From: Candidatus Falkowbacteria bacterium
GTDB lineage: Bacteria; Patescibacteriota; Patescibacteriia; Patescibacteriales; UBA12465
NCBI GenBank assembly: GCA_037137655.1
Contig: JBAXJX010000001.1
Span: 417,624-481,623 of the forward strand
Direction of reading: 5' to 3'
DNA length: 64,000 nucleotides
In this document: positions 16,232 to 56,515 of the stretch, in pieces
Numbering within the stretch: position 1 is the first letter of the stretch
Layout: every line of letters starts with the position of its first letter
Made by a program: the position numbers and the translations under genes
Notes under the pieces: model-generated
Told to the model about the DNA's origin: nothing
The model's input: only the letters and a program-made list of their open reading frames with translations
The model's database searches: none

Positions 16232-17368
16232 TTAATACGCACAATAAGCATTTCCTGCCAAGCTATTATTATACATTCCCTGGATTTCCGTCAAGTTTAA
16301 AGCCCGATTAGAAACAGCCACTTCGTCAACAAGGCCACTAAAATAAGTTGTTGCTAAATAACCAGGATAGGCATATCCCTTTCCGATTAAAAGCGAGTTA
16401 GCATTACCAATTGATTTTGCGGAGTAGGCGCCGGTATTTACCAGCACTGAATTTAAATACTGTTTAACATTGGAACCATCATAAGTGACAACAACATGAT
16501 TCCAGATGCCAGAGCCAAAAGCTATGGTAGTGCGCATATTAAGATAAGTGCCATCTGTCCATGATGCTTCAAAGCCAGAACTGTCAGCGCTTGTCGAAGT
16601 ATAAACACAAAAATTTCTCGAAGACGGCGGATAAACAGCTATAGCCTGACAAAATGGTGTCATATAATTAGGATCCGGATAAGAATTTACTTTAACCCAA
16701 AAAGAAAATGTAAATTGTGGATAACTAGTAATGAAATTGCCAAGATCCACATAATCATTAACACCATCAAAACTAAAAGCCTGGCCAACTTTACCGGGCG
16801 CAAATGTTGCGCCATTCATTAGCGTTCCATTGTTAAGGCTATGAGCATCATTAGCATTATTCTCTCCCCGCCAATAAGAAACCATGCCTAGACCAGAACA
16901 ACTAGCTAGCGTACAATCCGTTCCATCATTAATTCCGGCCGGTGTCGCACAATGTGCACCAGAAGTCAGTGCGCCAACCGAACCACCCACACAATACGAA
17001 ATGGAGTATGATGTGCCATTTTGTACTGGTAAATAATAATAAGCGCCATTATTAACACTAGTACATGGTCCGTCGGCTGGAGTTGGCGGCGTTGGAATTA
17101 TCGCCATGTAAGTTGTTGTGCCATTAATCGAAGTTGAATATAATGAACCGGAATTAAATTCATCCGCACTCGGATATCGCTGCTGATCATTAAAAAACAA
17201 TTCCAGTGCAGTCTGAGTTTGTTTCACGTCAGCCACACGCCGCGCGTCCCGCGCTTTTGCGCGAGCGTTTTGTAAGGCCACGACCGCGATGGTGGCTAAA
17301 ATGCCTATAATGGCAATAACAACGAGAAGCTCGATGAGAGTAAACGCACTTCTCTTTTTGTGAGGCAT
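16232..17368 (-). CDS. prepilin-type (type IV pilin/pseudopilin-like) protein with C-terminal LamG/concanavalin-like lectin domain
   Basis: N-terminal KRSAFTLIELLVVIAIIGILATIAV prepilin cleavage/methylation motif (Ala at -1, Glu at +5); C-terminal beta-rich domain resembling LamG. Confidence 0.7.
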   Translation of the reverse strand: MPHKKRSAFTLIELLVVIAIIGILATIAVVALQNARAKARDARRVADVKQTQTALELFFNDQQRYPSADEFNSGSLYSTSINGTTTYMAIIPTPPTPADGPCTSVNNGAYYYLPVQNGTSYSISYCVGGSVGALTSGAHCATPAGINDGTDCTLASCSGLGMVSYWRGENNANDAHSLNNGTLMNGATFAPGKVGQAFSFDGVNDYVDLGNFITSYPQFTFSFWVKVNSYPDPNYMTPFCQAIAVYPPSSRNFCVYTSTSADSSGFEASWTDGTYLNMRTTIAFGSGIWNHVVVTYDGSNVKQYLNSVLVNTGAYSAKSIGNANSLLIGKGYAYPGYLATTYFSGLVDEVAVSNRALNLTEIQGMYNNSLAGNAYCAY

Positions 17369-17428
17369 AAATAATTTTTTATTTATTAATATGTTTAAAT
17401 TATAGCATGATATAGAAATAAAATAAAA

Positions 17429-17457
17429 AATCCTGAAACTATTTTAGTTTCAGGATT
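17429..17457. terminator. perfect hairpin terminator
   Basis: AATCCTGAAACTA-ttt-TAGTTTCAGGATT, 13-bp stem, flanked by A-run/T. Confidence 0.55.
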
Positions 17458-17464
17458 TAATTCT

Positions 17465-17602
17465 ATTAATCTACAGCCCGATAAGACCAAGTTCCATCTG
17501 CCTTAAAAGCATTTAAAACTTTACATACTTCATGTGCGTTAGCTGAATTGCCACAATTAATTTTAAACGATTGTTTCGTTGTGTCGTTATAAATTTCATG
17601 CA
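17465..17602 (-). CDS. possible small protein (45 aa), hypothetical
   Basis: ATG at 17602, MHEIYNDTTKQSFKINCGNSANAHEVCKVLNAFKADGTWSYRAVD, followed by hairpin terminator; below ORF-track cutoff. Confidence 0.25.
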
Positions 17603-17679
17603 TAAAATAAAAGTTTAATTGGTTTTCACAAAAAAAATGTACAATTTTAATCCATTTTAGTTTCAGGGTTTACTCTTTT

Positions 17680-18063
17680 TTAGTTAACCGGTACCAAGCA
17701 CACTTGTAAGCGATATTTTTTTCGGTCATCTTCACAGCTTAAAGAAATTCCAGTAAGAGCCTTGTTTGAATGCCAACCAAGCCTACCATCACCTGAACTA
17801 TCCCTCGCAGCAATCAAACTTTCCAAAGTCACAATAACAGCTTCTATCTTTTTCTCATGACCCTTATCACATCTTTTCTCCGCTTTAGTAATATCTTTCT
17901 TAACTTTCCCCTTAGCTTCATCACTACTTTTTGCTAAAACAAAAAAACGTTCATCAACTGGTACAATACCATCATCATCATAATAAGAAGATGCAAAATG
18001 AACGCACCACAATAAATCACCATCTTCATTAGCGCCGGTGGAAGCGATTACTTTTCTATTCAT
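17680..18063 (-). CDS. hypothetical protein
   Basis: 127-aa ORF, no recognisable motif. Confidence 0.45.
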   Translation of the reverse strand: MNRKVIASTGANEDGDLLWCVHFASSYYDDDGIVPVDERFFVLAKSSDEAKGKVKKDITKAEKRCDKGHEKKIEAVIVTLESLIAARDSSGDGRLGWHSNKALTGISLSCEDDRKKYRLQVCLVPVN

Positions 18064-18164
18064 TTTATCTATTTTTTAAAGTTCAACACTATATTTACTT
18101 AATAAAAAAGCATACAATATGCATGCTTTTTTGTCAATATGTGGCTTTAAAATTTAAAAGATAA

Positions 18165-18341
18165 TAACTAACGATTTAAAAAAGTTAAAAGATTATAAAC
18201 CAAAAACGCCGGCCAAACTAAAGCCTTTAAAAACCCAAGCACTCCAACCCAAAAACTGGTAGCATGACCAAGATAATAAACCGCGGCACCAATCATACCG
18301 AGACCGTAAACCGCTCCACCACAAGCATTTTTATTAGACAT
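18165..18341 (-). CDS. possible small membrane protein (58 aa)
   Basis: ATG 18341; MSNKNACGGAVYGLGMIGAAVYYLGHATSFWVGVLGFLKALVWPAFLVYNLL two hydrophobic helices. Confidence 0.3.
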
Positions 18342-18413
18342 AAATAAATTTTATTATATAAAATCTTTATAATTAATTTAATTTTAGCAGAAAACTGGTA
18401 AATTTGCCACTTG

Positions 18414-18441
18414 TTGACATAGTTTGGTAATTTGCTATTAT
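18414..18441 (+). promoter_or_regulatory. promoter TTGACA-N16-TATTAT driving tRNA-Asn, followed by perfect 16-bp palindrome ATATTTCGCGAAATAT (18452-18467)
   Basis: TTGACA 18414-18419, TATTAT 18436-18441; palindrome sits at predicted +4..+20. Confidence 0.5.
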
Positions 18442-18501
18442 ATTAGTAAGAATATTTCGCGAAATATTTTTTATTTTTGAAAACAAAATAAACACACATT
18501 A

Positions 18502-18573
18502 TTCCGAGGTAGCGCAGCGGTAGCGCAGTTGACTGTTAATCAATTGGTCGTGGGTTCGAATCCCACCCTCGGA
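18502..18573 (+). tRNA. tRNA-Asn (anticodon GTT)
   Basis: Cloverleaf: acceptor TCCGAGG/CCTCGGA, D-arm GCGC-AGCGGTA-GCGC, anticodon stem GTTGA/TCAAT with loop CTGTTAA (GTT at 18534-18536), T-arm GTGGG-TTCGAAT-CCCAC, discriminator G; CCA not encoded. Confidence 0.9.
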
Positions 18574-18582
18574 GCATTGACA

Positions 18583-18611
18583 AAAAAGCGTACTTATAGT
18601 ATGCTTTTTTT
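18583..18611 (+). terminator. intrinsic terminator after tRNA-Asn
   Basis: aaaaaaGCGTACttataGTATGCttttttt. Confidence 0.5.
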
Positions 18612-18654
18612 GTTAGTTAAATATTGTTGAACATTAAAAATAGGAGATTAAAAA

Positions 18655-19182
18655 ATGATTGATTTGAATGAAAAAAGACAGGATATTATCGCTGTCGCCG
18701 CTGAATTATTTGATAAATTTGTTAATATACCAAAAAGTGTGCGTCCTGACGATAACAAAAGAACTGGTATTCAGGTTCTTGTTTTGGAACCGCATACAAG
18801 AAATTTGGTTATGGTCTCAATTAAAGAACCGTCTGAAGCAGCCAAATTTTTTGTTGTTGAAAAGGCAGTTAGGTCAGAAGAGCTATCACATATGTCGTCA
18901 GCTAATTCTGCTCATCCGCCTTTCATGCAATTTCCCGGTAGTCTTTCCGTGTTTTTAAATGAATTACCAGGGCACAATAATAAGCTTGAAGAGGGTGTTT
19001 TAACGGTATCCACATCTGGTTTATTGTCCGAGGAAGATGTTGCTATAAGTGCAGCTATTCTCGCTAAAATAACAGGAGCTTCATTTGCTCAAATTTGCGA
19101 TAGTGTCGATGCTTTTAGCGGTGAGCTACCTGATTGGTACAATAAAGATAGTAGAAGTTATTTTGATTTTTTATTTGAATAA
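18655..19182 (+). CDS. hypothetical protein (tRNA-adjacent plus-strand cassette, gene 1)
   Basis: 175-aa ORF with strong RBS AGGAGA 7 nt upstream; no recognisable domain. Confidence 0.55.
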   Translation: MIDLNEKRQDIIAVAAELFDKFVNIPKSVRPDDNKRTGIQVLVLEPHTRNLVMVSIKEPSEAAKFFVVEKAVRSEELSHMSSANSAHPPFMQFPGSLSVFLNELPGHNNKLEEGVLTVSTSGLLSEEDVAISAAILAKITGASFAQICDSVDAFSGELPDWYNKDSRSYFDFLFE

Positions 19183-19214
19183 TTTGTATTATTAATAATT
19201 TAAAATCTAAAAAG

Positions 19215-19448
19215 ATGTTATTGTATAAACAAAAGAAAAGTGTAGCTATTTTTGGAATCGATGTTAATAAAATTAATTCCACTGGTGACGAAATTACATG
19301 GAATAGAACTTCTAACGGCCAATCTGTTATAGTTGCATGTCTTGCAGCTATTGAAGGGGATCCGGAGGAACATTATCGGGTACATTTTTCAAAATCAGTG
19401 AGTATGGTAAAAGGAGAACTTAAAGACGCAATCATGCCAATTGATTAA
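19215..19448 (+). CDS. hypothetical small protein (cassette gene 2)
   Basis: 77-aa ORF followed by terminator hairpin 19453-19480. Confidence 0.45.
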   Translation: MLLYKQKKSVAIFGIDVNKINSTGDEITWNRTSNGQSVIVACLAAIEGDPEEHYRVHFSKSVSMVKGELKDAIMPID

Positions 19449-19452
19449 CTAT

Positions 19453-19480
19453 AAGGGAGTCTAGCAATAGCCTTCCTTTT
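19453..19480 (+). terminator. intrinsic terminator, near-identical copy (1-nt indel) of 8581-8607 element
   Basis: AAGGGAGTCTAGCAATAGCCTTCCTTTTTT. Confidence 0.55.
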
Positions 19481-19512
19481 TTATTATACTTTAAAACGGA
19501 CACAGGACTGAT

Positions 19513-19540
19513 TGACAAAATACAATAAATATGATACAAT
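19513..19540 (+). promoter_or_regulatory. promoter TTGACA-N16-TACAAT for cassette gene 3
   Basis: TTGACA 19513-19518, TACAAT 19535-19540. Confidence 0.45.
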
Positions 19541-19584
19541 ATTTCATAGTTAAAACTGTTATTGCACATTAAAATATATATAGA

Positions 19585-20175
19585 ATGAAAAATCTAATTG
19601 TTAAATTTACTGTCAGGTATGACCTGCTAGATGCAATGGTTGAAAAAGCTGATGTTTGGCCTGAAGATCCATTGTTTGGTAGCTCACAAGACACTTCCAT
19701 GTCTCAATATCAAATGAATTATGGCTTTGATTTTAGTCTTAAAAAACCTCTCGGATTAATTGAAGAATATGAAGGTATTGTATTCTTGGGCAAAGAAGGA
19801 ATGTCGATAAACGAGGGTATTGAAAAAATGAACGAGCTTGGATATGAAGGCGCAAATTTTTTTCAATTTTTAGGTTTTCGAATAGAGAACGGTCCAGACA
19901 AAAGATATATTACTGGAAATACTTCTCCACGATTATCTGATTTAGCTGAATATCTTGTTGCACCAGGCATCACATCAATTGATCCTCACGGAACAAGTAT
20001 GTCAGGTTTAAGCATGACAAAGGAAACTGAGTTAATGCTAAATGAAAAAGCTGTTTTTCAACCTAAAACTTTATTTCCAGTTCTACAACTTTCATTTGAA
20101 GGTCGATTGATGGCATTTGAAGCTAATCGAGATATGCGTGGAGGTATCGCTTTACTAGGTGTAAAGAAAATTTAA
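19585..20175 (+). CDS. hypothetical protein (cassette gene 3)
   Basis: 196-aa ORF; no recognisable domain. Confidence 0.5.
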   Translation: MKNLIVKFTVRYDLLDAMVEKADVWPEDPLFGSSQDTSMSQYQMNYGFDFSLKKPLGLIEEYEGIVFLGKEGMSINEGIEKMNELGYEGANFFQFLGFRIENGPDKRYITGNTSPRLSDLAEYLVAPGITSIDPHGTSMSGLSMTKETELMLNEKAVFQPKTLFPVLQLSFEGRLMAFEANRDMRGGIALLGVKKI

Positions 20176-20183
20176 ATTTATGG

Positions 20184-20214
20184 GGAGGTCTAAAACATCA
20201 GACCTCCTTTTTTA
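20184..20214. terminator. bidirectional intrinsic terminator
   Basis: GGAGGTCT-aaaacatc-AGACCTCC perfect 8-bp stem followed by TTTTTTAT. Confidence 0.65.
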
Positions 20215-20823
20215 TTTAAAACTAAAAATAACTTTTTTATCCGAAATATCAATATTTACACCTTTGTAATTTGGATAGGTCTTTAATAGGGTGAAAAACT
20301 TAGTTCCTAATTTATTAAAAACCATATTAGCCAAAGAACTTGGCACCGGCAAACCATGATAAGTCGCATTATCAATTGCAAATGATAAGTCTTTATCCGT
20401 GCTCACCAAGCTACCAGAAACAGCAAATTCGCCCGTCAAATACTTAATCAACGAGAAGCCGCTAAAGGCGATCTTCCCTTCACTGATAATTACATGCGGA
20501 TCTTTTAAGTCTGGTTTTTTAGTGGAGGCAATTTCCTGTCCCATTAAGTAATTTATTTCCTCCTCACTAAAACTTAAATTAGTGCTCGATGCCAAGACAA
20601 GTTTTAAATCATTAGTCTTATAAGCCTTCGTCCAAGCCTTGTATTTGGCTGCTGCTTGCACTTTTTCCCTATCACCGAAGACTTTCACCTCGGGCGCAAC
20701 ATTTACCACCACCGGAGTGACTGGCTTTTCCCAAAAAAACAAATCACGCCAGGACCAGGCGTGAGCTGCCGCCGGAATTAAAATTATAAATAACAACAAA
20801 ATTATAATCCAGCTTTTTTTCAT
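20212..20823 (-). CDS. hypothetical secreted protein (signal peptide), likely co-transcribed with rpoD
   Basis: MKKSWIIILLLFIILIPAAAHA signal peptide; 203 aa; overlaps rpoD stop by 1 nt region. Confidence 0.5.
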   Translation of the reverse strand: MKKSWIIILLLFIILIPAAAHAWSWRDLFFWEKPVTPVVVNVAPEVKVFGDREKVQAAAKYKAWTKAYKTNDLKLVLASSTNLSFSEEEINYLMGQEIASTKKPDLKDPHVIISEGKIAFSGFSLIKYLTGEFAVSGSLVSTDKDLSFAIDNATYHGLPVPSSLANMVFNKLGTKFFTLLKTYPNYKGVNIDISDKKVIFSFK

Positions 20824-20824
20824 A

Positions 20825-22225
20825 TTAGTAGTCGCGTAATTTTTCTAAACCTTTCAATTTTCTAATCTTCTCTAGAGCCTTCGCTTCAATTTGACGAATA
20901 CGTTCGCGGGTCACTTCAAATTCTTGACCAACTTCTTCTAAGGTGTGCGCCACACCATCAGTTAAACCAAAACGCATTTCCAAAATTCTTTGTTCACGCG
21001 GTGATAAATTAATGATAATTTCTTTCACGTAATCGCGTAACAATTGCAAAGCGGCAACACGATCTGGAGTTTCATTTTTTACATCCTCAATAAAATCTTC
21101 CAAAGTGGAATTATCATCATCATCACCAATAGAAGTTTCGAGTGATATAGTATCTTGTGAAATTTTAATAATGTAACGAACTTTTTCCAACTCTTCACCC
21201 ATTTCTGAAGCCACTTCTTCTGGTAACGGTTCGCGACCTAATTCTTGAATCAAAAATCTTTGCACTTGTTGAAAACGATTAATAGTTTCCACCATGTGCA
21301 CTGGAATACGAATTGTGCGGGATTGATCGGCTAAAGCGCGAGTCACGGCTTGGCGAATCCACCAAGTAGCGTAAGTTGAAAATTTATAACCTTTGCGATA
21401 TTCAAATTTTTCCACCGCGCGGAACAAACCAATATTTCCCTCTTGAATAAGATCGAGTAAACCTAAACCTTTGGCGCTGGCAAATTTCTTTGCAATCGAT
21501 ACCACCAAACGCAAATTAGCTTCAATGATAGCACGTTCCGCTTCGCGATCGCCCCGTTCTTTTCGTTTTGATAATTCAATTTCTTCTTCGGATGTTAACA
21601 ATGGAATTTTACCAATTTCTTTCAAATACATCTGGATGGAATCGGCACTTAACTTGGATAAATCAATACCCATGCTTGGCGCTTTTTTAACTACCACGTC
21701 TTCAGTTTTACCTAAAATATGACCGGCATCTTCAATAATCTTAATACCAGCTTCATGCAAACGACCTAAAAAAATATCGTAATCATAAACACAATCTTCT
21801 ACATGCGGAAATAAATATAATAATTCAGTCTCAGTAACAAAGCCACGCAAACGAGCCTTGTTAATCATCGAAACTAATCTCTCTTCAGTTGGTGGTGGCG
21901 TTGCTTCATGTGAAGCGATACGACGCGGAACAGTTTTAACTTCTTCCACCTCTTTAGCTTTTTCTTTTTTCGCCGGTGCCTTTGGCATCACCTTCTTCAC
22001 GGCCGCTTTTGGGGCAACCGGATGAACAACTTTAGCCAAAACTTTTTTAATAATTTTAGCAACTGGTTTTTTAATTATTTTCTGTTCAGTTTTTTTTATC
22101 ATTTTTTTCGGAGCAATCTTTGCTTTAGTTTTGACCTTAACCGGAGCCGGTTTTTTAGCCACTTTCTTAGGCGCCATCTTTGGCGTTTTTTTGATTATTT
22201 TTTTGTTTACTTGTTTGGCGCTCAT
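20825..22225 (-). CDS. rpoD: RNA polymerase sigma-70 factor RpoD with Lys/Ala/Pro-rich N-terminal extension
   Basis: Region 2 [55 protein letters not shown]; region 4 [25 protein letters not shown]; N-terminal [19 protein letters not shown] repeats. Confidence 0.9.
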
Positions 22226-22227
22226 AT

Positions 22228-24033
22228 TTAATTTATGTCAATTTCTTTTATCTTTTGACTAAGCAATTTTAAATCTGACAATAGCGCTGGAATTTGGGCC
22301 AAATCTTTATTTTGTTCAGCGGCCGCAATTCGCTTCTCTGTTTCGTGCATTTGCTGCTTAAAGAAAAATTGTTTTAAGGCAATTATTATTTTAATGATTT
22401 CATTTTTAGCTTGGTTGTCAGCTAAATCAGAGAAATCTTTATCAGCCAATAAAACTATTTTATTTAACAACGAAACATGACTTACCTCCTGGTTTTCTAA
22501 GTAAGTCTTGAGATTATCGTAGTTTAAATTCTTATTATCATTATAATACATTATCATGTTTTTGTAAAACTCCCGCACCGTCAAACCAAAAACTTGTTCC
22601 AGATCAATATTTGCTACGATATACTCCATGAATTCTGGGAATTTTAGCGCTAAAGCTAACAAAGATAAAGACAACTTCTCTTCCCATAAATCACTGTTTA
22701 AACTCGGTTTTACAGCTACCGGGGCTTTTCTTTGTGGTTCAATTTTAACTTCACTCCGTAAAACTTCACGAAGAGTTTCACGTAAAACACCTTCATCAAT
22801 ATCAATCATTTCCGCTAGGCGTTTTAACCAATGATCAATTTCTAACTTACTGGAAAATTTGGCAATCATCGTCAAAATCTTTTTACTAGTCGCCCGTTTA
22901 TTTTCAATTTTACTTAAATCGATTCCAGCGATAGCTTTAGTGAAATAATATTCCATCATCGGCTTAGCATTCTCCACAGCCTTCTCCCAATCAGCCGGAT
23001 TATTTTTCAAACATTCATCCGGATCTTTGCCGCCCGGAATCATAATAACTTCAATATTTAAATCAGCCGCCATTGCTTCTTTTATTCCTCGATCAGCCGC
23101 CATTTGCCCGGCCGGATCCGCATCAAAAGCGAGTGCGATATTATGAGTGTAGCGTTTAATTAATTTTACTTGCTCCGCTGTTAACGCCGTGCCAGAAGAA
23201 GCAATCACATTTTTATAACCGAATTGATGACAAGTGATTGCATCCATTTGTCCTTCCACAATAATAGCTAAGTCAGCATTTTTAATCGCCATCTTCGCCT
23301 TATCGAGCGCAAAAAAAACGCGCCCCTTATCATAAATATTAGTTTGGGGACTATTGATATACTTACCCAACTTCTCGGCTTCAACCGAGCTTGTCGCCGG
23401 ATTAACGCGCGCCGTAAAAGCAATAATATTACCGGCTGCATCGCTAATTGGAAACATGACGCGATCTCGAAAACGATTATAGTAAGAAGCTGAACCTTCT
23501 TTTTTTATACTGAGACCAGCCATAAATATTTCTTCATTGGAATATTTTTTCGAACGTAAATATAATAATAAATCATCCCAAGAATTTGGACTGTAACCGA
23601 TTCTCCAAGTTCGCACCGTTTCTTCGCTTAAGCCGCGACTCTTTAAATAATTTTTAATCGCCTCATTTTTAAACATCTCGCGCTGATAAAATTCAGCCGC
23701 CACTTCCATCACATCTTGCAAGCGACCCTTTTGCGAATTAAATTCCGTGTTTTCTTTTTGTAAAATCACACCAGCCTTGGGCGCTAATTGACGCATCGCT
23801 TCACCAAAACTAAGTCCTTCCATTTCCATGATGAAAGAAAAAATATCGCCACCCTTACCGCAACCAAAGCAATGCCAGATTTGTTTATCTGGTGACACCA
23901 TAAAAGACGGACTCTTTTCTTGGTGAAAAGGACAATTGGAGCGAAAGTTGGAACCGGCCGCTTTAAGTGAGATATACTCACCCAACACGTCAACGATATC
24001 CAATTTTGATTTTATCTCTTCCGATTGATTCAT
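22228..24033 (-). CDS. dnaG: DNA primase DnaG
   Basis: CHC2 zinc finger [30 protein letters not shown]; Toprim domain (EGQMD, DxD); located upstream of rpoD as in the classic dnaG-rpoD operon. Confidence 0.9.
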
Positions 24034-24036
24034 AGT

Positions 24037-24510: not shown

Positions 24511-24515
24511 AATTT

Positions 24516-24983: not shown

Positions 24984-24987
24984 AGAC

Positions 24988-25887: not shown

Positions 25888-25898
25888 AAAAAAATAAA

Positions 25899-26645: not shown

Positions 26646-26647
26646 AT

Positions 26648-47037: not shown

Positions 47038-47042
47038 ATTTT

Positions 47043-47645: not shown

Positions 47646-47746
47646 AAAGATATGATAGCATGTCTTGATTTTTTTATCAAAGGGTGTTATGATAATAGAA
47701 AATAAAAATAATTCCAGCCCAGACCAATCCGGGCTTTTTAAAATCT

Positions 47747-47959: not shown

Positions 47960-47978
47960 TCTTTTTATATTTCAAAAA

Positions 47979-48010
47979 ACACTCCGAGAAATTGGAGTGT
48001 TTTTTTATGT
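47979..48010 (+). terminator. intrinsic terminator after rpmB
   Basis: ACACTCC-gagaaatt-GGAGTGT followed by TTTTTTTAT. Confidence 0.65.
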
Positions 48011-48053
48011 GTCATTTATAATTTAATTTTAAAACTATAGTTTTGTATTAATA

Positions 48054-49367
48054 CTATTTTGTCACATTATATAAATTATTAACTTCAGAATCAGATAAAG
48101 ATCTGTTATAAATTTCTAATTCACCGATTTTTCCGCTAAATGTTTGTGCTGCGGTCGCACCGGGACGACGACGACCGATTTCTAAATTAAGATTATTTAA
48201 GATCGGAGATGTTATTGAATTTGAATTATCAGTTAAAACACCATCAATATAAATTTTAGCATTAGTAGAGGCACCGTTTAGCACGACAACAATGTTATGC
48301 CAAGTGCTTAAAGGGATGGTAATACCTGACGTTAAGACACTCTGATTTGAAACTATATAAGGTTTACCAATATTTGCTGTGCCAGCCAAAATAATTTCCC
48401 AACCACTACCCATTTCATAATATCCTTTATTTACTAATACCGGATAACCACCAGTATTTACAACATCAGCATATATCCAAGTACTTATAGTCATATTAGA
48501 ATAATTAAAAGCGCTAGTGTTGTTTGTGTACAAATAAGTACTACCACCAAAGCTAACGGCTGGCCGACCAGCCACACTCGACATATAGACTGGTTGATAA
48601 CCGCCAGCGTCCTGAATAGCATTATAACCATTACCACTTAAATCATTCCATCCAGTAACATAGTTTCCAGTAGTGGTCGCAACTTGACTAGCAGCATTTA
48701 AATAAAAGACTAAACCGGAAATTGTTGCCGCACCGCCAGTCGCCGCCGCGACACATGTCCCGCCAATACAATAAGTTCCGCTAGCACAATTAGCGTTACG
48801 AGAACAATAAGTCCCACCAATACAAGCATTTTGCGCAAAAGTTCCATCACAGCCCTGACAACATGGCAAAGCGGCATTTGTACAAGAACAACCACCAGCA
48901 GCTAACAAAATAGAATTACCAGAACCAATGTAAGATATTCCAATTGGTGAAGCGGCATTTACGCCAGCACGAGTTGTGCCAGTCGGGCCACCCAAGCAAA
49001 AAGATAAGGAATATGTTGCGCCATCATTAGAAGTATAAGTGTAATTATTATCTGCGGTGGCACAAGTATTATCATTAGGAGTTGGGGCAACTGGGATTTT
49101 AGCCATATAAGTGGTGGTACCATTAGTGGTAGTGGAAAAAATTGATCCAGCATTAAATTCGGCGGTAGTTGGATATCTTTGTTGATCATTAAAAAATAAT
49201 TCCAGCGCTGTTTGCACTTGTTTCACGTCAGCAATACGCCGTGCGTCACGGGCTTTGGCTCGGGCATTTTGTAAAGCGACCACGGCGATGGTGGCTAAGA
49301 TACCGATGATAGCAATGACAACTAAAAGTTCAATTAAGGTAAAACCACTTCTCTTTTTATAAATCAT
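48054..49367 (-). CDS. prepilin-type protein (pseudopilin-like) with Cys-rich linker and C-terminal LamG/concanavalin-like domain
   Basis: KKRSGFTLIELLVVIAIIGILATIAVVALQNARAKARDARR; start at internal MIYKKRSG (ATG 49367); C-terminal domain ends GELEIYNRSLSDSEVNNLYN. Confidence 0.75.
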   Translation of the reverse strand: MIYKKRSGFTLIELLVVIAIIGILATIAVVALQNARAKARDARRIADVKQVQTALELFFNDQQRYPTTAEFNAGSIFSTTTNGTTTYMAKIPVAPTPNDNTCATADNNYTYTSNDGATYSLSFCLGGPTGTTRAGVNAASPIGISYIGSGNSILLAAGGCSCTNAALPCCQGCDGTFAQNACIGGTYCSRNANCASGTYCIGGTCVAAATGGAATISGLVFYLNAASQVATTTGNYVTGWNDLSGNGYNAIQDAGGYQPVYMSSVAGRPAVSFGGSTYLYTNNTSAFNYSNMTISTWIYADVVNTGGYPVLVNKGYYEMGSGWEIILAGTANIGKPYIVSNQSVLTSGITIPLSTWHNIVVVLNGASTNAKIYIDGVLTDNSNSITSPILNNLNLEIGRRRPGATAAQTFSGKIGELEIYNRSLSDSEVNNLYNVTK

Positions 49368-49387
49368 AATATATTTAAATTTTAAAA

Positions 49388-51061
49388 TTAATCTTGAATA
49401 CAGCGAACCGCAGCACCTATAAAACGCCAATCAGCATTAGGAAAACTTAAAACACCACTAGAATAAGAAAATCTCATAAACCAAATTCTAATAGAGTCAA
49501 CTGGATTAGCCGCCATAATCATAGTCATAGTTCCTAAACTATCATAACCACCATTACGATTTCGACCAGCCGGCAAAGCTGTAAAACCAGAAGAGTTATC
49601 GGCGATATTTGTAGCTGCCCAATGAACAGTTCCCGCTTCTTTTAAATGTCCGCCAGCAACTTGAGAGGTGCCTAAATAATTAACCATGGTATTCATCTCT
49701 TGCTCTGATGGAACGTGCCAACCACTCGGACAAATACCTTGAATTTTATGAGTAGCTGGATCTGGGAAATCACACCCAACTTGATCAGTCGAGACACAAT
49801 TACCATTATTAGGCGCACCAGAACAATCATAGGCGCCGACACCATAATTATAAGTAGCCGCATCGCAATTAACAGGTAGCCTCATAACATTAGCCCATTC
49901 ATAAAGACCGCCATAGATTGCACAATTAGCACTATTATTTCCATAACAAAACTTTTGAATAGTGGAGGTTGAGGTTTGACAATACCACCAACCACTTTGG
50001 TTAACACAAGGCGCTGAACTACCGCTATTAATCATAGTTCCAACATTTAAATTCTCCTTTAGCCAGCATTGCGTCCCAATTAACACGGTGTGATATTTTC
50101 CAGCATCCGGGCCACCATCATAAGTAACTTCATCAGTGCCACAAGTAAAACAATTATTACTAATACAATTTTGTCCTGAACCACATGAACCACAGCTAAT
50201 TGTAGCGCCACAATTATCGGTCGTTGTACCACAAGTTTTTCCACTACAACTAGTAACTGGATTGGAAGTACAACCGCACTGCGCGACATTACCGCCACCA
50301 CCACAAGTTTGCGGGGCACTGCATTGAACATGGCTCGGATTATTAACGGTGCCGCCACAACCATCACTTAAAGAAGCACGACAATCACTTGGATCAGCCG
50401 AGGCCGGACTGCAACAAGAATTATTGTAACAAACTTGGGCACCAGAACAATCGACGCCATTACAACTAACACATTGACCGGAATTAGCACTGCAAGTAAA
50501 TGTTCCGGTGCATGCGAGTGGACTCGGATTAGTTAAAGTTAAACCACAATTATTATTATAAGTCGCTCGACAATCACTACCTGGAGCGGCCGTTGGCACG
50601 CAAAGACAACCATTGCCATTGTCAATTCCAGCTGGAGTCGCACAATGCAAACCGGAAATCATGCCACCAACCGAGCCACCGACACAATATTTTATTGAAT
50701 AGGATGTACCATCTATACTTGGCGCGTAAACATAAGAATTATTATCAAAATTAGTACACGCGCCGTCAGCTGGCGCCGGTGGCGTGGGAATGATAGCCAT
50801 GTAAGTAGTTGTGCCTTGGGTGGAAGTGGAAAAGATTTGACCAGAAGAAAATTCCGCCGCGCTTGGATAGCGTTGTTTATCATTGAAAAATAATTCTAAA
50901 GCCGTTTGAGTTTGTTTCACATCTGCGACACGACGAGCGTCACGCGCTTTAGCGCGAGCATTTTGTAAAGCGACAACTGCGATGGTGGCTAAGATGCCAA
51001 TAATGGCAATGACAACTAAAAGTTCGATTAAGGTAAAACCACTTCTCTTTTTACGAAACAT
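49388..51061 (-). CDS. prepilin-type protein with large Cys-rich region and C-terminal Fibrobacter-succinogenes-major-paralogous (FISUMP, TIGR02145-like) domain
   Basis: MFRKKRSGFTLIELLVVIAIIGILATIAVVALQNARAKARDARR; >40 Cys in central region; C-terminal GTQCWLKENLNVGTMI...GWHVPSEQEM...RCIQD. Confidence 0.75.
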   Translation of the reverse strand: MFRKKRSGFTLIELLVVIAIIGILATIAVVALQNARAKARDARRVADVKQTQTALELFFNDKQRYPSAAEFSSGQIFSTSTQGTTTYMAIIPTPPAPADGACTNFDNNSYVYAPSIDGTSYSIKYCVGGSVGGMISGLHCATPAGIDNGNGCLCVPTAAPGSDCRATYNNNCGLTLTNPSPLACTGTFTCSANSGQCVSCNGVDCSGAQVCYNNSCCSPASADPSDCRASLSDGCGGTVNNPSHVQCSAPQTCGGGGNVAQCGCTSNPVTSCSGKTCGTTTDNCGATISCGSCGSGQNCISNNCFTCGTDEVTYDGGPDAGKYHTVLIGTQCWLKENLNVGTMINSGSSAPCVNQSGWWYCQTSTSTIQKFCYGNNSANCAIYGGLYEWANVMRLPVNCDAATYNYGVGAYDCSGAPNNGNCVSTDQVGCDFPDPATHKIQGICPSGWHVPSEQEMNTMVNYLGTSQVAGGHLKEAGTVHWAATNIADNSSGFTALPAGRNRNGGYDSLGTMTMIMAANPVDSIRIWFMRFSYSSGVLSFPNADWRFIGAAVRCIQD

Positions 51062-51112
51062 AAAAATGAGTTATTTTATAATATTTTAATTATACCATAA
51101 AAATATAGTGAC

Positions 51113-52369
51113 TTAAAACTTAAGTGCGGCAAACGGCAAGTTGGCAAAAAAGTTGGTCATAATGAAAATATATTTTAGTAGAAAGTATGATGGTAAAAAC
51201 CACAGCGGTGCAAGTGGCGTGTAAATAAATGACAAACTTAGTGCCACTAACGCTAAAATTATTAAGACGGCAAAGACCCAAATAATTAAAGCATTAGCCA
51301 CTGGCGCAATAAGCGATAAACGACCGAAATTAAACACTAAAATCGGCCACGATAATAATTCACAAGCAATAGTCATCACAAAAATATCCATCACTTCCCC
51401 CACTTTTTTCTGCCAAAATTTAGATTTAATTTTAGCAATTAATTTATCACTCCTTTTTTTTAAAACCGGGTAAACATAAATCAGTGCGATGATTGCTAAA
51501 AATGATAACTGGAAACCAACGTCACTTATTAAATAGCGCGGGTTATAAAGCAACATCATCGCCAACGCAAAAAATAATATGCGCGTGATACGCGCTAGTC
51601 GCCCGATATATTTTCCATAAAGTAACAAGCCGCCCATTACCAAGGCGCGCACGGCCGGCGCTTGGCAACCGGTCATCACCACATAAAGAAATAATAATAC
51701 TAACGAACCCCAAAATGATTGGCGGCGGGAAAAAGCGAAAAATAAAAAAATACTATCAATAATTGCCGCCAGCAGCGTAATATGTGAACCGGAAATCGCA
51801 ATAATATGACTAATGCCGATGAGAGAAAATTTATCCAAATCATCTTTACTGACGGTGTATTTATAACCAAGAACCAAAGCATTGGCGAGACCAGATTCTG
51901 GCTCTGACAAAGCTAAATTAATAATATCGAGCGCCCGCTTTTTAAACGCAATTAAATTTCTTTTAAATAACCAAATAATGGATTTTTCCTGACCGATTTT
52001 AGCAATCTTTGGATAATAAGCTAAAAAATAAATTTGCTCTTTAGCGAGATAAGCTGGGTAATCGAAATTTTCAATTTTATCGGGCCGCTGGAGTTTTCCC
52101 GACACAGCCACAATATCACCTGGTAAATATTCTGGATACTTATCCACAGTTAAAAGTATTTTAAAATTATTTTTTCCGACAATAATTTTTTGGTAAGAGT
52201 CGCGCACATCCGGCTCATAAAGCACCACACTTCTTAAATTAATTTTTTTATTATTCAAATCACTAAAAACTTTTTCCGCCGAATGCAAATAAATAAAATA
52301 AAAGCGTAAGGCTAATAAAATTATCAACCCTAACCAAAAAATTATTTCTTTGCGGCGCAATTTAAACAT
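51113..52369 (-). CDS. comEC: ComEC/Rec2-like DNA internalisation channel (DUF4131 + competence domain, no metallo-beta-lactamase domain)
   Basis: 418 aa polytopic membrane protein; FSLIGISHIIAISGSHITLLAAII competence-domain signature. Confidence 0.65.
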   Translation of the reverse strand: MFKLRRKEIIFWLGLIILLALRFYFIYLHSAEKVFSDLNNKKINLRSVVLYEPDVRDSYQKIIVGKNNFKILLTVDKYPEYLPGDIVAVSGKLQRPDKIENFDYPAYLAKEQIYFLAYYPKIAKIGQEKSIIWLFKRNLIAFKKRALDIINLALSEPESGLANALVLGYKYTVSKDDLDKFSLIGISHIIAISGSHITLLAAIIDSIFLFFAFSRRQSFWGSLVLLFLYVVMTGCQAPAVRALVMGGLLLYGKYIGRLARITRILFFALAMMLLYNPRYLISDVGFQLSFLAIIALIYVYPVLKKRSDKLIAKIKSKFWQKKVGEVMDIFVMTIACELLSWPILVFNFGRLSLIAPVANALIIWVFAVLIILALVALSLSFIYTPLAPLWFLPSYFLLKYIFIMTNFFANLPFAALKF

Positions 52370-52429
52370 AAAAAAATACTAATTGTGACATTAGTATTTT
52401 AAAGAAAGATTATAAAGTTTTTATAAATA

Positions 52430-53524
52430 TTATTTTTTCAACCAGCGCAAATAGGCTTCCGTAAACGGTTCAAGTTCCCCGTCCAGGACGCTCGCAATAT
52501 CACTCGTTTCATAATCCGTGCGATGATCTTTTACCATTTGATATGGCTGCATGACATATGAGCGAATTTGACGACCCCAACCAGCGCCGCCACTTTCACC
52601 TTTTAATTTTCGCTCTTCCGTTTCCCGTTTTTCATCTTCCAAGTGCTTTAGTTTAGCATTTAAAATCTTAAAAGCGATTTCGCGATTTTGGTGCTGTGAG
52701 CGCTCCGTTTGGCACGTAACTGTAATCTTCGTCGGTAAATGCACCAAGCGCACCGCAGACGACGTTTTATTGACATTCTGACCACCTGGACCAGAGGAAT
52801 GAAAGAAATCCATGCGCACATCCTCTTCTCTGATATTTAATTCTTCTGACTCCGGTAATTCGGGAATAACTTCAATCGAAGCAAACGAAGTGTGACGCAT
52901 TGCCTCAGAGTCAAAGGGTGAAATGCGCACCAAGCGATGCATGCCACTTTCCCCTTTTAAATAAGCGTAAGCCCACTGACCGTCCACCCGAAAGGATGAA
53001 CTTTTAATACCAGCTTCATTACCATAACTGCGATCTAAAATTTCCACCTTAAATTTTTTCTTTTCACAAAAGCGCAACAACATTCTTTCTAAAATCTGCG
53101 CAAAATCTTGGGCATCAACACCACCGGTGCCACTGTGAATAGTGACAATTGCGGCACTGGCATCATATTTACCATCAAACAATAATAAAAATTCTAAATC
53201 CGAAAAAGTTTTTTGGAGCTCATCATATTTTTTATTGGCTTCTTCCGACAAACTATTATCATTTTCACTTTCAGCAATCGCCACCAACTCTTCCAGCTCG
53301 CGAATATTTTTTTCAAAATCATCCCATTTTTTTATTTCCGAATCTAATTCTTCCACGCGTTTACCAATAGCCACCGCCGCTTCGCGATCATTCCAAAAAT
53401 CCGGCGCACTCATCAAGCGTTTTTTATCATTACTTTCCGTGATCTTCGCATCCACATCCAAAAGACTTCTAGTTTTTAGAAATCGTTCACGCAATTCTTC
53501 AATTTTTTTTAATAAGTTTTCCAC
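52430..53524 (-). CDS. prfB: peptide chain release factor 2 (no programmed +1 frameshift; probable GTG start)
   Basis: SPF tripeptide (RISPFDSEA), GGQ motif SGPGGQNVNKTSSAVRLVHLPT; N-terminus VENLLKKIEELRERF aligns with RF2 start; ORF-track extension to 53707 overlaps pilin gene and is rejected. Confidence 0.8.
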   Translation of the reverse strand: MENLLKKIEELRERFLKTRSLLDVDAKITESNDKKRLMSAPDFWNDREAAVAIGKRVEELDSEIKKWDDFEKNIRELEELVAIAESENDNSLSEEANKKYDELQKTFSDLEFLLLFDGKYDASAAIVTIHSGTGGVDAQDFAQILERMLLRFCEKKKFKVEILDRSYGNEAGIKSSSFRVDGQWAYAYLKGESGMHRLVRISPFDSEAMRHTSFASIEVIPELPESEELNIREEDVRMDFFHSSGPGGQNVNKTSSAVRLVHLPTKITVTCQTERSQHQNREIAFKILNAKLKHLEDEKRETEERKLKGESGGAGWGRQIRSYVMQPYQMVKDHRTDYETSDIASVLDGELEPFTEAYLRWLKK

Positions 53525-53555
53525 AATTTTAAATTTTACGCAATAATATTTATAT

Positions 53556-54692
53556 TTAATTTTGAATACAACGGACAGAAAAACCATTGCAAGTACTAGG
53601 AGTATCACGCCATATACCAGCAACACCTGATAAAGATCTCGTATAACCAGCTGACGACCACCATTCACCCACATTATTAAATGCAAAGTATAAATTATTG
53701 CCTTCATCAGGGCAATAATAATATCCAGCTAAAATCCCGTCAAAACCGGATGATCCACCAGTCTTTAGTTTTGTCCCAGCCGAAACACAATCATCGTAAC
53801 TACGATTAGCTACACAAGTTTGACCATTGTCTTTTAAATAGTTTTCTAAAACTGAAAAATCTGAATCTAATGGTAAATGCCAACCATTTGGACAAATATC
53901 TTTAGCTCCAGCGTATTGCGCTGCTTCGTCATATTGATATAAACCACCATAAGTTTGACAACTAGACGTGCTATCGCCATAACAATATTTTTCCATAACG
54001 CCATTATTGGTTTGGGATACAGCACCGGTAGTAACGCCAACAACATAGTGACCAACGTTTAAATTTTGCTTTATCCAACATTGAGTACCAATACTAACCG
54101 TATCATAAGTGCAGGTGTCATAATCCGGTGCTCCAGTATTGCAAACATGATTAAGGGTTGATGTTACCACTACTTGAGATTGCAGGCAAACGGAAGCCGG
54201 CACACTACTAGTTACCGCCACAATTCCCTTTGGTGTTAAAATATTATTACCGGCAGCAAATTTATCAACTTGAGAACCAAGACAAAATGATAAAGAATAA
54301 GTATTGGTGGTGGTGCCTGGTGTATAAACATAAGCATTACTAGAAGAACTACAAGAACCATCCGGTGGTGTTGGCGCATTAGGAATAGTGGCTAGATAAG
54401 CCACACCGTTTGGCGAAACTATTTTCCCAGATGACCATTGAGTTGATGAAGGATAAATGCCGTTATCAGTTATATATAATTCTAGAGCTTTTTTAATTTG
54501 AGTGACTTGAGACAAGCGCATAGTATCACGAGCGGAAGCAAATCTTTGCAATGGATTTAGAGCTACAAAAACTACCGCCGCAATAATAGCGATGATAGCA
54601 ATAACAATTAGGAGTTCGATGAGAGTGAAGAATTTTTTACTTTTTTTTCGACACTTTTTTAATTTAGAATTTATTTTAGGGAAAAAGTTCAT
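53556..54692 (-). CDS. prepilin-type protein with C-terminal FISUMP domain; Phe instead of Gly at -1
   Basis: MNFFPKINSKLKKCRKKSKKFFTLIELLIVIAIIAIIAAV; VSIGTQCWIKQNLNVGHYV...GWHLPLDSDF...RCIQN; start ATG 54692 consistent with promoter at 54734-54762. Confidence 0.7.
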   Translation of the reverse strand: MNFFPKINSKLKKCRKKSKKFFTLIELLIVIAIIAIIAAVVFVALNPLQRFASARDTMRLSQVTQIKKALELYITDNGIYPSSTQWSSGKIVSPNGVAYLATIPNAPTPPDGSCSSSSNAYVYTPGTTTNTYSLSFCLGSQVDKFAAGNNILTPKGIVAVTSSVPASVCLQSQVVVTSTLNHVCNTGAPDYDTCTYDTVSIGTQCWIKQNLNVGHYVVGVTTGAVSQTNNGVMEKYCYGDSTSSCQTYGGLYQYDEAAQYAGAKDICPNGWHLPLDSDFSVLENYLKDNGQTCVANRSYDDCVSAGTKLKTGGSSGFDGILAGYYYCPDEGNNLYFAFNNVGEWWSSAGYTRSLSGVAGIWRDTPSTCNGFSVRCIQN

Positions 54693-54733
54693 AAATAATA
54701 ACAATAATAAGCAAAACATCAACCAACGCAACT

Positions 54734-54762
54734 ATTTTAACAGAAATAACTAAATTTCACAA
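54734..54762 (-). promoter_or_regulatory. promoter TTGTGA-N17-TAAAAT for pilin gene 53556..54692
   Basis: rc 54757-54762 TTGTGA, rc 54734-54739 TAAAAT. Confidence 0.45.
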
Positions 54763-54768
54763 ATAAAA

Positions 54769-54791
54769 AACCACTAAATTATTTAGTGGTT
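54769..54791 (-). terminator. intrinsic terminator of 54814..55305
   Basis: AACCACTAAAT-tat-TTAGTGGTT then (minus) TTTTTTATTTG. Confidence 0.6.
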
Positions 54792-54813
54792 ACGAAGATT
54801 CTTAAATAAAAAA

Positions 54814-55305
54814 TTAAATTTTTGTTTTTCTTGGTTCTTTCCCAAAAAATTCAACAAAATTATTAACTAAATTTTCTAAACCCAAAACCCAAACAGCTCC
54901 CCAAAAAAATGACAAGCAGAAGGATATGGAATAGGCTAATAAAATTTTATTATCAACTACCGGTTGAATTCCAAAATCAACTAAGCGTAGCACTGAATTA
55001 ACAATTAATAATTTCAACAAATAAATACTTGGACCAATAATTGCCAACTTTAAACCACTCACAATCCATTCATAGCGAATATTTATCCGAAAAAATTTAA
55101 AAACATAAGTCGCTAAATTTTTAAATGACTCAATAAAAATAATTGCTTCAAAAATATCAGTTATCAAAGTCACTCCCCGAAAAACCAGAGACTGTTCTAA
55201 TGACATTTTCACCAGAAATAATTCATAAAATAAAATTCCAAAATTTGTCAGCAGAAGAAAAAAATAAAATTCCAAAATCTTCCTTAATTGCCCGGACTGC
55301 AGCAT
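54814..55305 (-). CDS. hypothetical integral membrane protein
   Basis: 163 aa, 4 TM segments. Confidence 0.45.
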   Translation of the reverse strand: MLQSGQLRKILEFYFFLLLTNFGILFYELFLVKMSLEQSLVFRGVTLITDIFEAIIFIESFKNLATYVFKFFRINIRYEWIVSGLKLAIIGPSIYLLKLLIVNSVLRLVDFGIQPVVDNKILLAYSISFCLSFFWGAVWVLGLENLVNNFVEFFGKEPRKTKI

Positions 55306-55381
55306 CTAATCCTCCTTTTTTTAATTAAATTATTAATAAACAAAAAACTACTATTTACTTTGTATAAAATTACAACTTTTG

Positions 55382-56515
55382 TCAATCATGAATACAGCGA
55401 ACGGAATAACCATAAGAATTATTATCATTAGTTCTTAAGATGTAGTGACCAGTCTCAACCCATGTGCCCTCATCATCATAGCCACCAATCAATTCAATCA
55501 GTCTATCCCATGCTCTTGTACCACTAATAACTGTAGAGGACCAAAACTGGCTATTATTACCAAAGTAAGTAAATCCAGATGAAGCCCCAATTTTAACCCC
55601 AGAAAGTAAAGCATTGAATAATAATGGATCTTGATATTGAATACCAGCACCATAGCAATCCCAAGTATTTCGATTAGGGTTACAAGTTTGGCCCACGGTT
55701 TTTAAATACTGATCTAAAGTATTTTGTTCAGAATCACTTGGGATATGCCAACCGGTCGGACAAACACCTTGAGCGCTTTCAGTGACAGAGTATTGCATTG
55801 CTTCACCCCATGAATATAAACCACCATGAATATCACAATTACTAGTGATATTATTATAACAATATTTCTCTACAATACCATTGTTTGAAACAACATTATC
55901 ACTAGATGATGCAATAACCATTGTGCCAATGTTTAAGTTATCTTTAAACCAGCACTGCGAACCAATTTGCACGGTGCGATAATAGCCACCTTGATTACGA
56001 CTTGATCCGCTAAGATCATATGGTCCACCAGCATAAGCTATCGTACTCCCACAAGCAAAAGACGAGGATGTCGCCACTACACTAACAATCCCGGTTGGTG
56101 TTAAAATATTATTTCCGGCAGAAAATTTATCAACTTGAGAGCCAAGACAAAATGATAAAGAATAAGTATTAGTAGTAGTACTTGGTGTGTAAACATAAGC
56201 ATTACTGGAAGAACTACAAGAACCATCTGGTGGTGTTGGTGCGTTAGGAATAGTAGCCAGATAAGCCACACCATTTGGCGAAACTATTTTACCGGATGAC
56301 CACTGAGTGGGTGAGGGATAAACACTGTTATCCATAATATATAATTCCAGAGCCTTTTTAATTTGGACTACCTGGGAAAGACGCATGGTATCACGAGAAG
56401 AAGAAAAACGTTGAAGTGGATTTAAGGCCACAAAAACCACCGCCGCAATAATGGCAATGATAGCAATAACAATTAGGAGTTCGATGAGGGTAAATCCGCT
56501 TTTCTTATTTTTCAT
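55382..56515 (-). CDS. prepilin-type protein with C-terminal FISUMP domain
   Basis: MKNKKSGFTLIELLIVIAIIAIIAAVVFV; first ~140 aa ~90% identical (nt level) to 53556..54692; VQIGSQCWFKDNLNIGTMV...GWHIPSDSEQ...RCIHD. Confidence 0.75.
   Translation of the reverse strand: MKNKKSGFTLIELLIVIAIIAIIAAVVFVALNPLQRFSSSRDTMRLSQVVQIKKALELYIMDNSVYPSPTQWSSGKIVSPNGVAYLATIPNAPTPPDGSCSSSSNAYVYTPSTTTNTYSLSFCLGSQVDKFSAGNNILTPTGIVSVVATSSSFACGSTIAYAGGPYDLSGSSRNQGGYYRTVQIGSQCWFKDNLNIGTMVIASSSDNVVSNNGIVEKYCYNNITSNCDIHGGLYSWGEAMQYSVTESAQGVCPTGWHIPSDSEQNTLDQYLKTVGQTCNPNRNTWDCYGAGIQYQDPLLFNALLSGVKIGASSGFTYFGNNSQFWSSTVISGTRAWDRLIELIGGYDDEGTWVETGHYILRTNDNNSYGYSVRCIHD

Follow-up and report, generated by a model that had tools for sequence, protein, structure and literature searches.

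A 64-kb stretch of contig JBAXJX010000001.1 from a "Candidatus Falkowbacteria" bacterium (hereafter, the window) contains five genes whose products are probably modular (bi- or tri-modular) type IV pilins, with adhesive, lectin-like heads displayed via the pilus. A large part of bacterial diversity belongs to the Patescibacteria, organisms that live attached to other cells; outside Saccharibacteria, we know of no account of how most of them recognize their hosts. Pilins with a common module but different heads offer concrete candidates for adhesins that recognize the host. The architecture itself has already been catalogued, and the proteins described here extend that catalogue and leave the current picture of type IV pili unchanged. 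The additions are the number of paralogues (about 20 or more in a ~1-Mb genome), Cys-rich stalks, and two subfamilies of the pilin module, as well as a pilin slot kept behind comEC and a possible recombination junction within a pilin gene.

All five open reading frames (ORFs) of the original prediction, which was made from the DNA letters alone, are real. They lie on the minus strand at 16232-17368, 48054-49367, 49388-51061, 53556-54692, and 55382-56515 (hereafter, pilins 1 to 5) and encode proteins of 378, 437, 557, 378, and 377 amino acids (aa), for which "giant" was a generous word. The class III signal peptide is defined as a short hydrophilic leader ending in Gly or Ala, followed by ~21 hydrophobic residues with Phe at position +1 and Glu at position +5 (PMC9934059). 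In a six-frame translation of the entire window, the pattern [GAF]FTLIELL with Glu at +5 is confined to these five genes; two further matches to a looser pattern fall outside any pilin-like context. A canonical prepilin N terminus, predicted for each protein, is found in four of them, which score 35 to 39 bits against the Pfam N_methyl profile (curated cut-off, 21.2 bits) and have at position -1 either Gly (three proteins) or the equally permitted Ala (pilin 1). It does not extend to pilin 4, whose 21-aa leader ends in KKF, directly before FTLIEL, and whose N_methyl score of 19.4 bits is below the cut-off; the metagenome gene call for this protein has no N_methyl match. In a set of 180 related pilins, 131 have Ala at position -1, 45 have Gly, 3 have Phe, and 1 has Ser. 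Ala or Gly is thus the rule in this lineage, which makes pilin 4 an outlier.

The two LamG heads of the original prediction are borne out: pilins 1 and 2 match Laminin_G_3 (Pfam ID PF13385) with E values of ~1e-21 (1.1e-21 and 2.4e-21, respectively) and scores of 78 and 77 bits versus a cut-off of 27.6. Their N_methyl matches have E values of 6.9e-9 and 4.7e-10. In pilin 1, the leader MPHKKRSA precedes FTLIEL, the pilin module (group A, as defined below) covers approximately aa 1 to 150 (nucleotides [nt] 16919-17368), and the LamG head covers aa 201 to 363 (nt 16280-16768). Searches of PDB sequences match this head to 4qvs_A (E = 1.8e-10) and the pilin part to the α1 helix of pilins. An identical protein (P0121) is labelled as a LamG-like jellyroll protein of "Ca. 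Falkowbacteria." Pilin 2 has a group A module (nt 48918-49367), a short Cys-rich linker with 10 cysteines (aa 160 to 205; nt 48753-48890), and a LamG head (aa 273 to 430; nt 48078-48551). NCBIfam searches also relate the LamG heads to TafC, a haloarchaeal Tat-fimbria subunit (E = 1.8e-8), but only the jelly-roll domain is held in common, and this similarity is irrelevant to the mechanism.

Pilins 3, 4, and 5 carry, also as predicted, heads of the Fibrobacter succinogenes major paralogous (FISUMP) type, with E values from 3.5e-23 to 5e-28. Their scores are 83 to 93 bits with the Pfam profile Fib_succ_major (PF09603; cut-off, 33.9) and 82 to 99 bits with TIGR02145 (cut-off, 41.65), in all cases well above the curated cut-offs. 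Pilin 3 (N_methyl, E = 9e-10; Fib_succ_major, E = 3.5e-23; TIGR02145, E = 5e-28) consists of a group A module (nt 50645-51061), a Cys-rich stalk (aa 140 to 307; nt 50141-50644, minus strand), and a FISUMP head with insertions (aa 319 to 557; nt 49391-50107). The stalk is rich in Gly, Ser, Thr, and Asn and contains two internal repeats of ~50 aa (DCRA...CG...NPS...C...C..C) plus shorter CxnC units; it has no Pfam or NCBIfam match, and a similar stalk is found in the paralogue P0022. Its 27 cysteines in 168 aa are fewer than the more than 40 in ~250 aa that had been predicted, the entire 557-aa protein having exactly 40. Pilin 4 (Fib_succ_major, E = 2.8e-26) joins a group B module to a FISUMP head at aa 192 to 378 (nt 53559-54119). 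Pilin 5 (N_methyl, E = 5e-10; Fib_succ_major, E = 8e-24) starts with MKNKKSG before FTLIEL, followed by a group B module (nt 56075-56515), a flexible linker (approximately aa 146 to 160), and a FISUMP head (aa 176 to 377; nt 55385-55990). It has more than 1900 homologues, most of which share the N_methyl-FISUMP domain order.

Sequence alignment shows that the N-terminal module comes in two subfamilies, group A (pilins 1, 2, and 3; 75 to 77% nucleotide identity) and group B (pilins 4 and 5; 86%). In both groups, it consists of ~145 residues and includes a conserved Cys pair. According to NCBIfam, its nearest families are the major-type pilins GspG, PilA, and ComGC, and Glu5 is present; the α1 sequences match solved pilins in the PDB with E values from 1e-5 to 1e-11. 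An AlphaFold2 model of pilin 5, built on 77 homologues, has a mean predicted local distance difference test score (pLDDT) of 90.4 and shows a long α1 helix, a sheet of 4 or 5 strands, a low-confidence linker (residues 148 to 152), and a separate compact head. The helices span residues 10 to 30 and 33 to 63, the strands fall within residues 84 to 145, and pLDDT exceeds 90 over the module. In a Foldseek search, the top PDB match of the full-length model is PAK pilin, a weak hit with an E value of 0.044. The domain matches and the model's two separate modules support the earlier claim of LamG or FISUMP heads grafted onto pilin modules. Over codons 1 to 65 of the group A paralogues, nonsynonymous divergence is 0.05 to 0.07 versus a saturated synonymous divergence of 1 to 3; the module is therefore kept by purifying selection and not by recent copying. 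The group A genes are old paralogues with a nearly constant assembly helix, as would be expected if their products fit one filament or machine.

The repertoire is not limited to the window. At least 20 paralogues carry a group A or group B module, counted in two homologue searches as distinct proteins that are indexed to a 965-kb contig of the same population (ENA ERZ4201038 NODE_1), which carries proteins identical to those of the window, or are found in other loci of that population. The "family of five" was thus an undercount for a genome with some 20 or more members. The paralogues are 325 to 573 aa long, with an additional 778-aa member, an N_methyl protein with no recognized head domain (L095:11368-13704). 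They carry a head of the FISUMP, LamG, or Lcl_C/DUF1566 type, a GloVer repeat, or no recognizable head; the Lcl_C/DUF1566 head is found in a 325-aa pilin encoded in tandem with two FISUMP pilins (L004:844-1821). The genes occur singly, in pairs, or in threes among unrelated housekeeping genes, at no fewer than 8 loci, and several FISUMP pilins per contig are also encoded in other patescibacterial genomes. Pilins sharing one assembly module take up roughly 2 to 3% of the coding capacity of this ~1-Mb genome, and the ~20-gene family probably serves as the attachment toolkit of a tiny host-dependent cell.

No pilus machinery is encoded in the window, whose 20- to 28-kb block holds rpoD, dnaG, scpA/B, and similar genes. 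Key components are found elsewhere in the genome. Over 18.6 kb, the window matches a 569-kb metagenome contig (ENA ERZ4223250 NODE_1) with 100% identity, and this contig encodes a 268-aa prepilin peptidase with an A24_N_bact domain (L091:5112-5918), which has CxxC...CxxC pairs and the GxGD motif and lies beside ftsA/ftsZ and two further pilins of the family. On the 965-kb contig is a gene for a protein of 1008 aa that contains two T2SSE domains (E = 3e-227; L003:5856-8882). The first of these (aa 174 to 564) is PilB-like; judging from its size and position, the second (approximately aa 730 to 1008) would be PilT-like, making the protein an apparent PilB-PilT fusion of the extension and retraction motors. 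Such a fusion implies that the pilus extends and retracts. Its gene lies ~1 kb upstream of a FISUMP pilin gene and is preceded by genes for four membrane proteins without a family match. Thus, an assembly ATPase, a prepilin peptidase, and matches to the LamG and FISUMP domains, the lack of which the original prediction had named as grounds against itself, have all been found.

On this evidence, each protein would be synthesized as a prepilin whose short Lys-rich leader is cleaved off by the PilD-type peptidase from another locus of the contig. It would then enter a type IV pilus via its conserved α1 helix and small α/β module, the pilus being powered by the PilB-PilT ATPase of the genome. A flexible linker or a disulfide-rich stalk would hold the C-terminal head off the fibre. 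This head, either a LamG jelly-roll or FISUMP, the latter probably related at a distance to the C-type-lectin-like domain DUF1566/Lcl_C, would bind a surface ligand on the host cell or substrate, by analogy most likely a glycan. The 20 or more paralogues, with a near-invariant module and different heads, look like a set of interchangeable adhesins, and the location next to comEC would reflect a conserved chromosomal slot and possibly co-transcription rather than any demonstrated function in DNA uptake.

Modular pilins were defined by Raynaud et al. in 2021, and the catalogue in that work contains the same domain orders as the pilins of the window. The N_methyl-Laminin_G_3 combination (IPR012902-PF13385) is the commonest architecture, with 229 proteins, and N_methyl-FISUMP (IPR012902-IPR011871) is the fifth most frequent, with 40; representatives from the candidate phyla radiation include "Ca. 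Falkowbacteria" (PMC8179133). It is, however, a list of architectures that holds no studied FISUMP pilin. The minor pilins PilC (lectin) and PilB (vWA) of Streptococcus sanguinis likewise combine a small pilin module, a short linker, and a bulky ligand-binding module, and the lectin module of PilC binds glycans at the pilus tip (PMC9934059). On the other hand, PDB searches with the LamG pilin detect no sequence similarity to PilC, and S. sanguinis has two modular pilins as opposed to ~20 in this patescibacterial genome. In Saccharibacteria, minor pilins that are lectin-like and carry accessory domains at the C terminus play a part in binding to the host: PilX1 and PilX2 of Nanosynbacter lyticus TM7x are referred to as lectin-like, and efficient host binding requires PilX2 (PMC11623550). 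The heads of PilX1 and PilX2 differ from those in the window, and their pilin sequences are unrelated beyond the N terminus; furthermore, the 12 TM7x pilins are encoded in machinery loci, whereas the genes described here are scattered among housekeeping genes. Given the precedents in Saccharibacteria and in S. sanguinis PilC, the adhesive part of the predicted "adhesive and/or DNA-uptake" pilus is supported, while its link to DNA uptake is purely positional.

FISUMP domains number in the thousands across Fibrobacter, Bacteroidota, Patescibacteria, and phages; to our knowledge, they have no known function and no solved structure. Raynaud et al. listed FISUMP among the modules without a clear function (PMC8179133), and a literature search yielded no paper devoted to FISUMP pilins as a specific subject. 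The original prediction regarded all the heads as carbohydrate-binding modules. This may apply to the LamG heads and is less certain for FISUMP, which has only a weak relation to the C-type-lectin-like Lcl_C/DUF1566 family and no solved structural neighbor. The Pfam Lcl_C profile is weakly matched by 9 of 21 FISUMP heads (best E value, 9e-5), and hhalign aligns the FISUMP profile with the Lcl_C pilin of the same genome with an E value of 1.2e-4 and a probability of 55%, via the GWxxP, WSS, and VRC motifs (in the heads, GW(H/F)xP...E, (Y/F)WSS, and VRC). The C-terminal domain of Legionella pneumophila Lcl (Lcl-CTD/DUF1566) is a C-type-lectin-like adhesin domain that binds glycosaminoglycans (PMC11162425). 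However, FISUMP is about twice the size of the DUF1566 core and is disulfide-rich, whereas Lcl-CTD has no disulfides and is trimeric. The display of FISUMP on a pilin argues for a ligand-binding module. There is moderate support for FISUMP as a ligand-binding and possibly C-type-lectin-like module, which falls short of proof that it binds carbohydrates.

A model of the FISUMP domain alone has a pLDDT of 85.9 and a predicted template modelling score of 0.83 and matches FISUMP domains in proteins of uncultured tailed phages. FISUMP has been reported among the target domains of diversity-generating retroelements (PMC11661182). Such diversification of the heads in the window was considered and rejected, as there is no template repeat and no apparent reverse transcriptase ORF: all repeats of 60 nt or longer in the window fall in the paralogous pilin modules or, in the case of one stretch, inside the FISUMP domains, and no reverse-transcriptase-like ORF is seen among the large ORFs, part of which were scanned against Pfam.

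Several observations weigh against the proposed mechanism or against the placement of these proteins as minor or tip pilins. A profile of the 21 FISUMP heads matched zero PDB sequences, and Foldseek found no PDB neighbor of the FISUMP model below an E value of 0.5, Lcl-CTD and C-type lectins included. The case for a lectin-like fold is therefore one of weak profile similarity, and neither a C-type-lectin fold nor a new fold can be claimed. Pilin 4, with Phe at position -1, may escape cleavage. The platform protein PilC (T2SSF) and PilM/N/O are absent from the window and were not located in the population loci examined. Finally, the best 120 matches of the pilin module include no protein shorter than 325 aa from this genome, and so no plain short pilin that shares the module. 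This last observation would suit a fibre in which the modular pilins are alternative major subunits, so that lectin heads cover the pili entirely or over long stretches and the paralogues are expressed under different conditions. The major-pilin character of the module, with its Glu5, and the separate terminator- and promoter-like pairs of pilins 4 and 5 (see below) could be read in the same way. However, a head of 200 to 400 aa on every subunit is sterically demanding, the large modular pilins of S. sanguinis and TM7x are minor components of pili with small major pilins, and a divergent short major pilin could be encoded elsewhere in the genome. Fibres decorated along their length are thus unlikely.

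The class III signal peptide might also serve solely to export the binding proteins and anchor them at the cell surface or in a short pseudopilus, with no long adhesive pilus at all. The archaeal bindosome of sugar-binding proteins and the pseudopili of type II secretion systems are comparable surface-anchored arrangements. Pilin 4 fits this alternative, as it would probably stay uncleaved and membrane anchored, as do the heads, which resemble substrate- or glycan-binding modules, and the many homologues that have been named type II secretion pseudopilins by NCBI and JGI. Nevertheless, the model of pilin 5 contains, beyond the signal peptide, a complete pilin α/β module, and very strong purifying selection acts on the α1 helix in all these old paralogues, which fits a helix that packs into a filament. 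The PilB-PilT fusion, with the extension and retraction that it implies, also argues for a true pilus; moreover, Patescibacteria are known to bear abundant pili, and type IV pili are indispensable to Saccharibacteria (PMC11623550, PMC10633639). Surface anchoring as the sole function of the signal peptide is distinctly unlikely, and display of the heads on a pilus remains the preferred interpretation.

The gene for the ComEC/Rec2 DNA-uptake channel (51113-52369, minus strand; 418 aa) lies between the fourth and third pilin genes. The predicted clustering of the pilins with ComEC holds to that extent, as a matter of position, although most members of the family are far from comEC. This is a short form of ComEC, which matches the Pfam domains Competence (E = 1.4e-47) and DUF4131 (E = 1.6e-12) and is devoid of the C-terminal metallo-β-lactamase nuclease domain. 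As its best 120 homologues (333 to 573 aa) also contain only DUF4131 and/or Competence, the short form looks like a lineage trait of these Patescibacteria. The comEC stop codon is 52 nt from the start of pilin 3, and pilin 2 fills a conserved pilin slot between comEC and the gene for an M50 protease.

Synteny was compared between the window genome and the neighborhoods of three ComEC orthologues (L092, L093, and L094). All three share the conserved backbone infA-rpsM-rpsK-rpsD-rpoA-rplQ-rplM-rpsI-prfB-comEC-(rpmB)-M50-(ydjM)-rpsL-rpsG-fusA, and a modular pilin follows comEC in three of the four genomes, counting that of the window. In L092 (ComEC 69% identical), the pilin gene (L092:8333-10091) is broken by a frameshift into ORFs of 141 and 463 aa, which either reflects a sequencing error or marks the gene as a pseudogene; Pfam gives no match to the ~440-aa head. 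In L093 (47%), the gene after comEC encodes a LamG pilin with 42% identity to pilin 2 over the full length and with the same Cys-rich linker, and in L094 (41%), there is no pilin at comEC. The pilin slot behind comEC is recurrent. The block upstream of prfB that consists of pilin 5, a 163-aa ORF, and pilin 4 is a lineage-specific insertion absent from all three loci. In the other genomes examined, FISUMP pilins have no com or pil neighbors. The notion of ComEC as the organizer of a pilin cluster was accordingly dropped in favor of backbone synteny with a variable pilin slot. A scan of GTDB genomes with the pilin alignment was unusable for synteny statistics; the matches listed include Bacteroidota FISUMP proteins and unrelated pilins.

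No strong terminator is found between prfB and the end of pilin 2, so the genes from prfB through pilin 2 could be co-transcribed. The co-directional order pilin 4-prfB-comEC-pilin 3-pilin 2, with gaps of 21 to 61 nt or overlaps and no strong terminator in between, might be taken to mean that the comEC-adjacent pilins are subunits of a DNA-uptake pilus whose heads capture DNA or deliver it to ComEC. The modular pilins directly after comEC in L092 and L093 would agree with this, as would the cooperation of Com proteins with type IV pili and the requirement of ComEC for transformation of Saccharibacteria (PMC10633639). Such a role is highly improbable, however, as the position of comEC belongs to the ribosomal protein/prfB backbone and the comEC of L094 has no pilin, most family members and the FISUMP pilins of other genomes are far from comEC, LamG and FISUMP are not known as DNA-binding modules, the neighborhood includes no comEA, comFC, or dprA, and the essential role of type IV pili in Saccharibacteria is independent of comEC (PMC10633639).

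The history of the slot occupant, pilin 2, may include recombination. Over 13.3 kb, ending at approximately nt 370 of the pilin 2 gene (48054-49367), the window genome is matched without a difference by a contig assembled from another sample (ERZ4224321 NODE_1436). Past this point, that contig continues, at 99.65% identity, as the paralogue P0178 with its downstream copper resistance and nrdD genes. On the contig that contains the window, P0178 is encoded on the other strand, at a distance of ~450 kb. Pilin 2 was compared with L089:13003-14268 and L091:10001-11266; pilin 2 and P0178 have a common exact tract of 220 nt, as opposed to only 11 to 65 nt in other pairs. The junction reflects either recombination in the pilin module, with an inversion and head swap, or a chimeric assembly at the repeat; it coincides with an apparent ~450-kb inversion between strains. 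Pervasive gene conversion among the paralogues is rejected, as no other pair shares a long exact tract and synonymous divergence is saturated.

In Neisseria, recombination among the pilin paralogues pilE and pilS alters the displayed part of the pilin. The apparent head swap inside the 220-nt identical tract would be analogous, but it is a single event and possibly an assembly chimera, the copies are full-length genes with their own starts and not silent cassettes, and most of the paralogues are old. We tentatively suggest, with low confidence, a system with a conserved shaft and variable heads, in which the near-invariant module would fit the same pilus, the heads (LamG, FISUMP, DUF1566, or of unknown fold) would diversify and occasionally be exchanged by recombination in the shared module, setting the host range or attachment specificity of the epibiont, and the comEC slot would link attachment with DNA uptake. 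Exchangeable receptor-binding proteins of phages may offer an analogy for such a repertoire.

The prfB gene for release factor 2 (52430-53587, minus strand; 385 aa, PCRF and RF-1 domains) belongs to the housekeeping backbone and not to the pilin family. It lies between pilin 4 and comEC, with a 32-nt overlap between its start and the 3' end of pilin 4, and is a single uninterrupted ORF without the programmed +1 frameshift site that is common in bacterial prfB genes. The 163-aa ORF between pilins 5 and 4 (54814-55305, minus strand) encodes a predicted membrane protein with no Pfam match. A 250-aa ORF between rpsI and pilin 5 (56599-57351) has no family match either; a 199-aa homologue occupies the same position in L092, between rpsI and prfB, which points to a conserved backbone gene of unknown function. 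A consensus scan finds a terminator-like hairpin followed by a promoter-like site just upstream of both group B pilins, on the minus strand. For pilin 4 (54734-54791), these are at 54791-54769 and 54762-54734 (TTGTGA/TAAAAT with TG), and for pilin 5 (56522-56584), at 56584-56557 (an 11-bp hairpin) and 56550-56522. The two hairpins are very alike, with the same TTTTATTTGT tail, and each is followed by a promoter-like site starting with TTGTGA, a pattern that suggests duplication of a pilin gene along with its control region.

Directly downstream of pilin 1, after a gap of 3 nt, lies a gene for a LytR-CpsA-Psr family ligase of cell wall glycopolymers (14666-16228; LytR_cpsA_psr and LytR_C domains) with a Thr-rich C-terminal tail. 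At 2292-4942, the window contains two adjacent, slightly overlapping ORFs (457 and 440 aa) whose motifs resemble those of class II aminoacyl-tRNA synthetases of the Asp/Asn type, possibly a paralogous pair.

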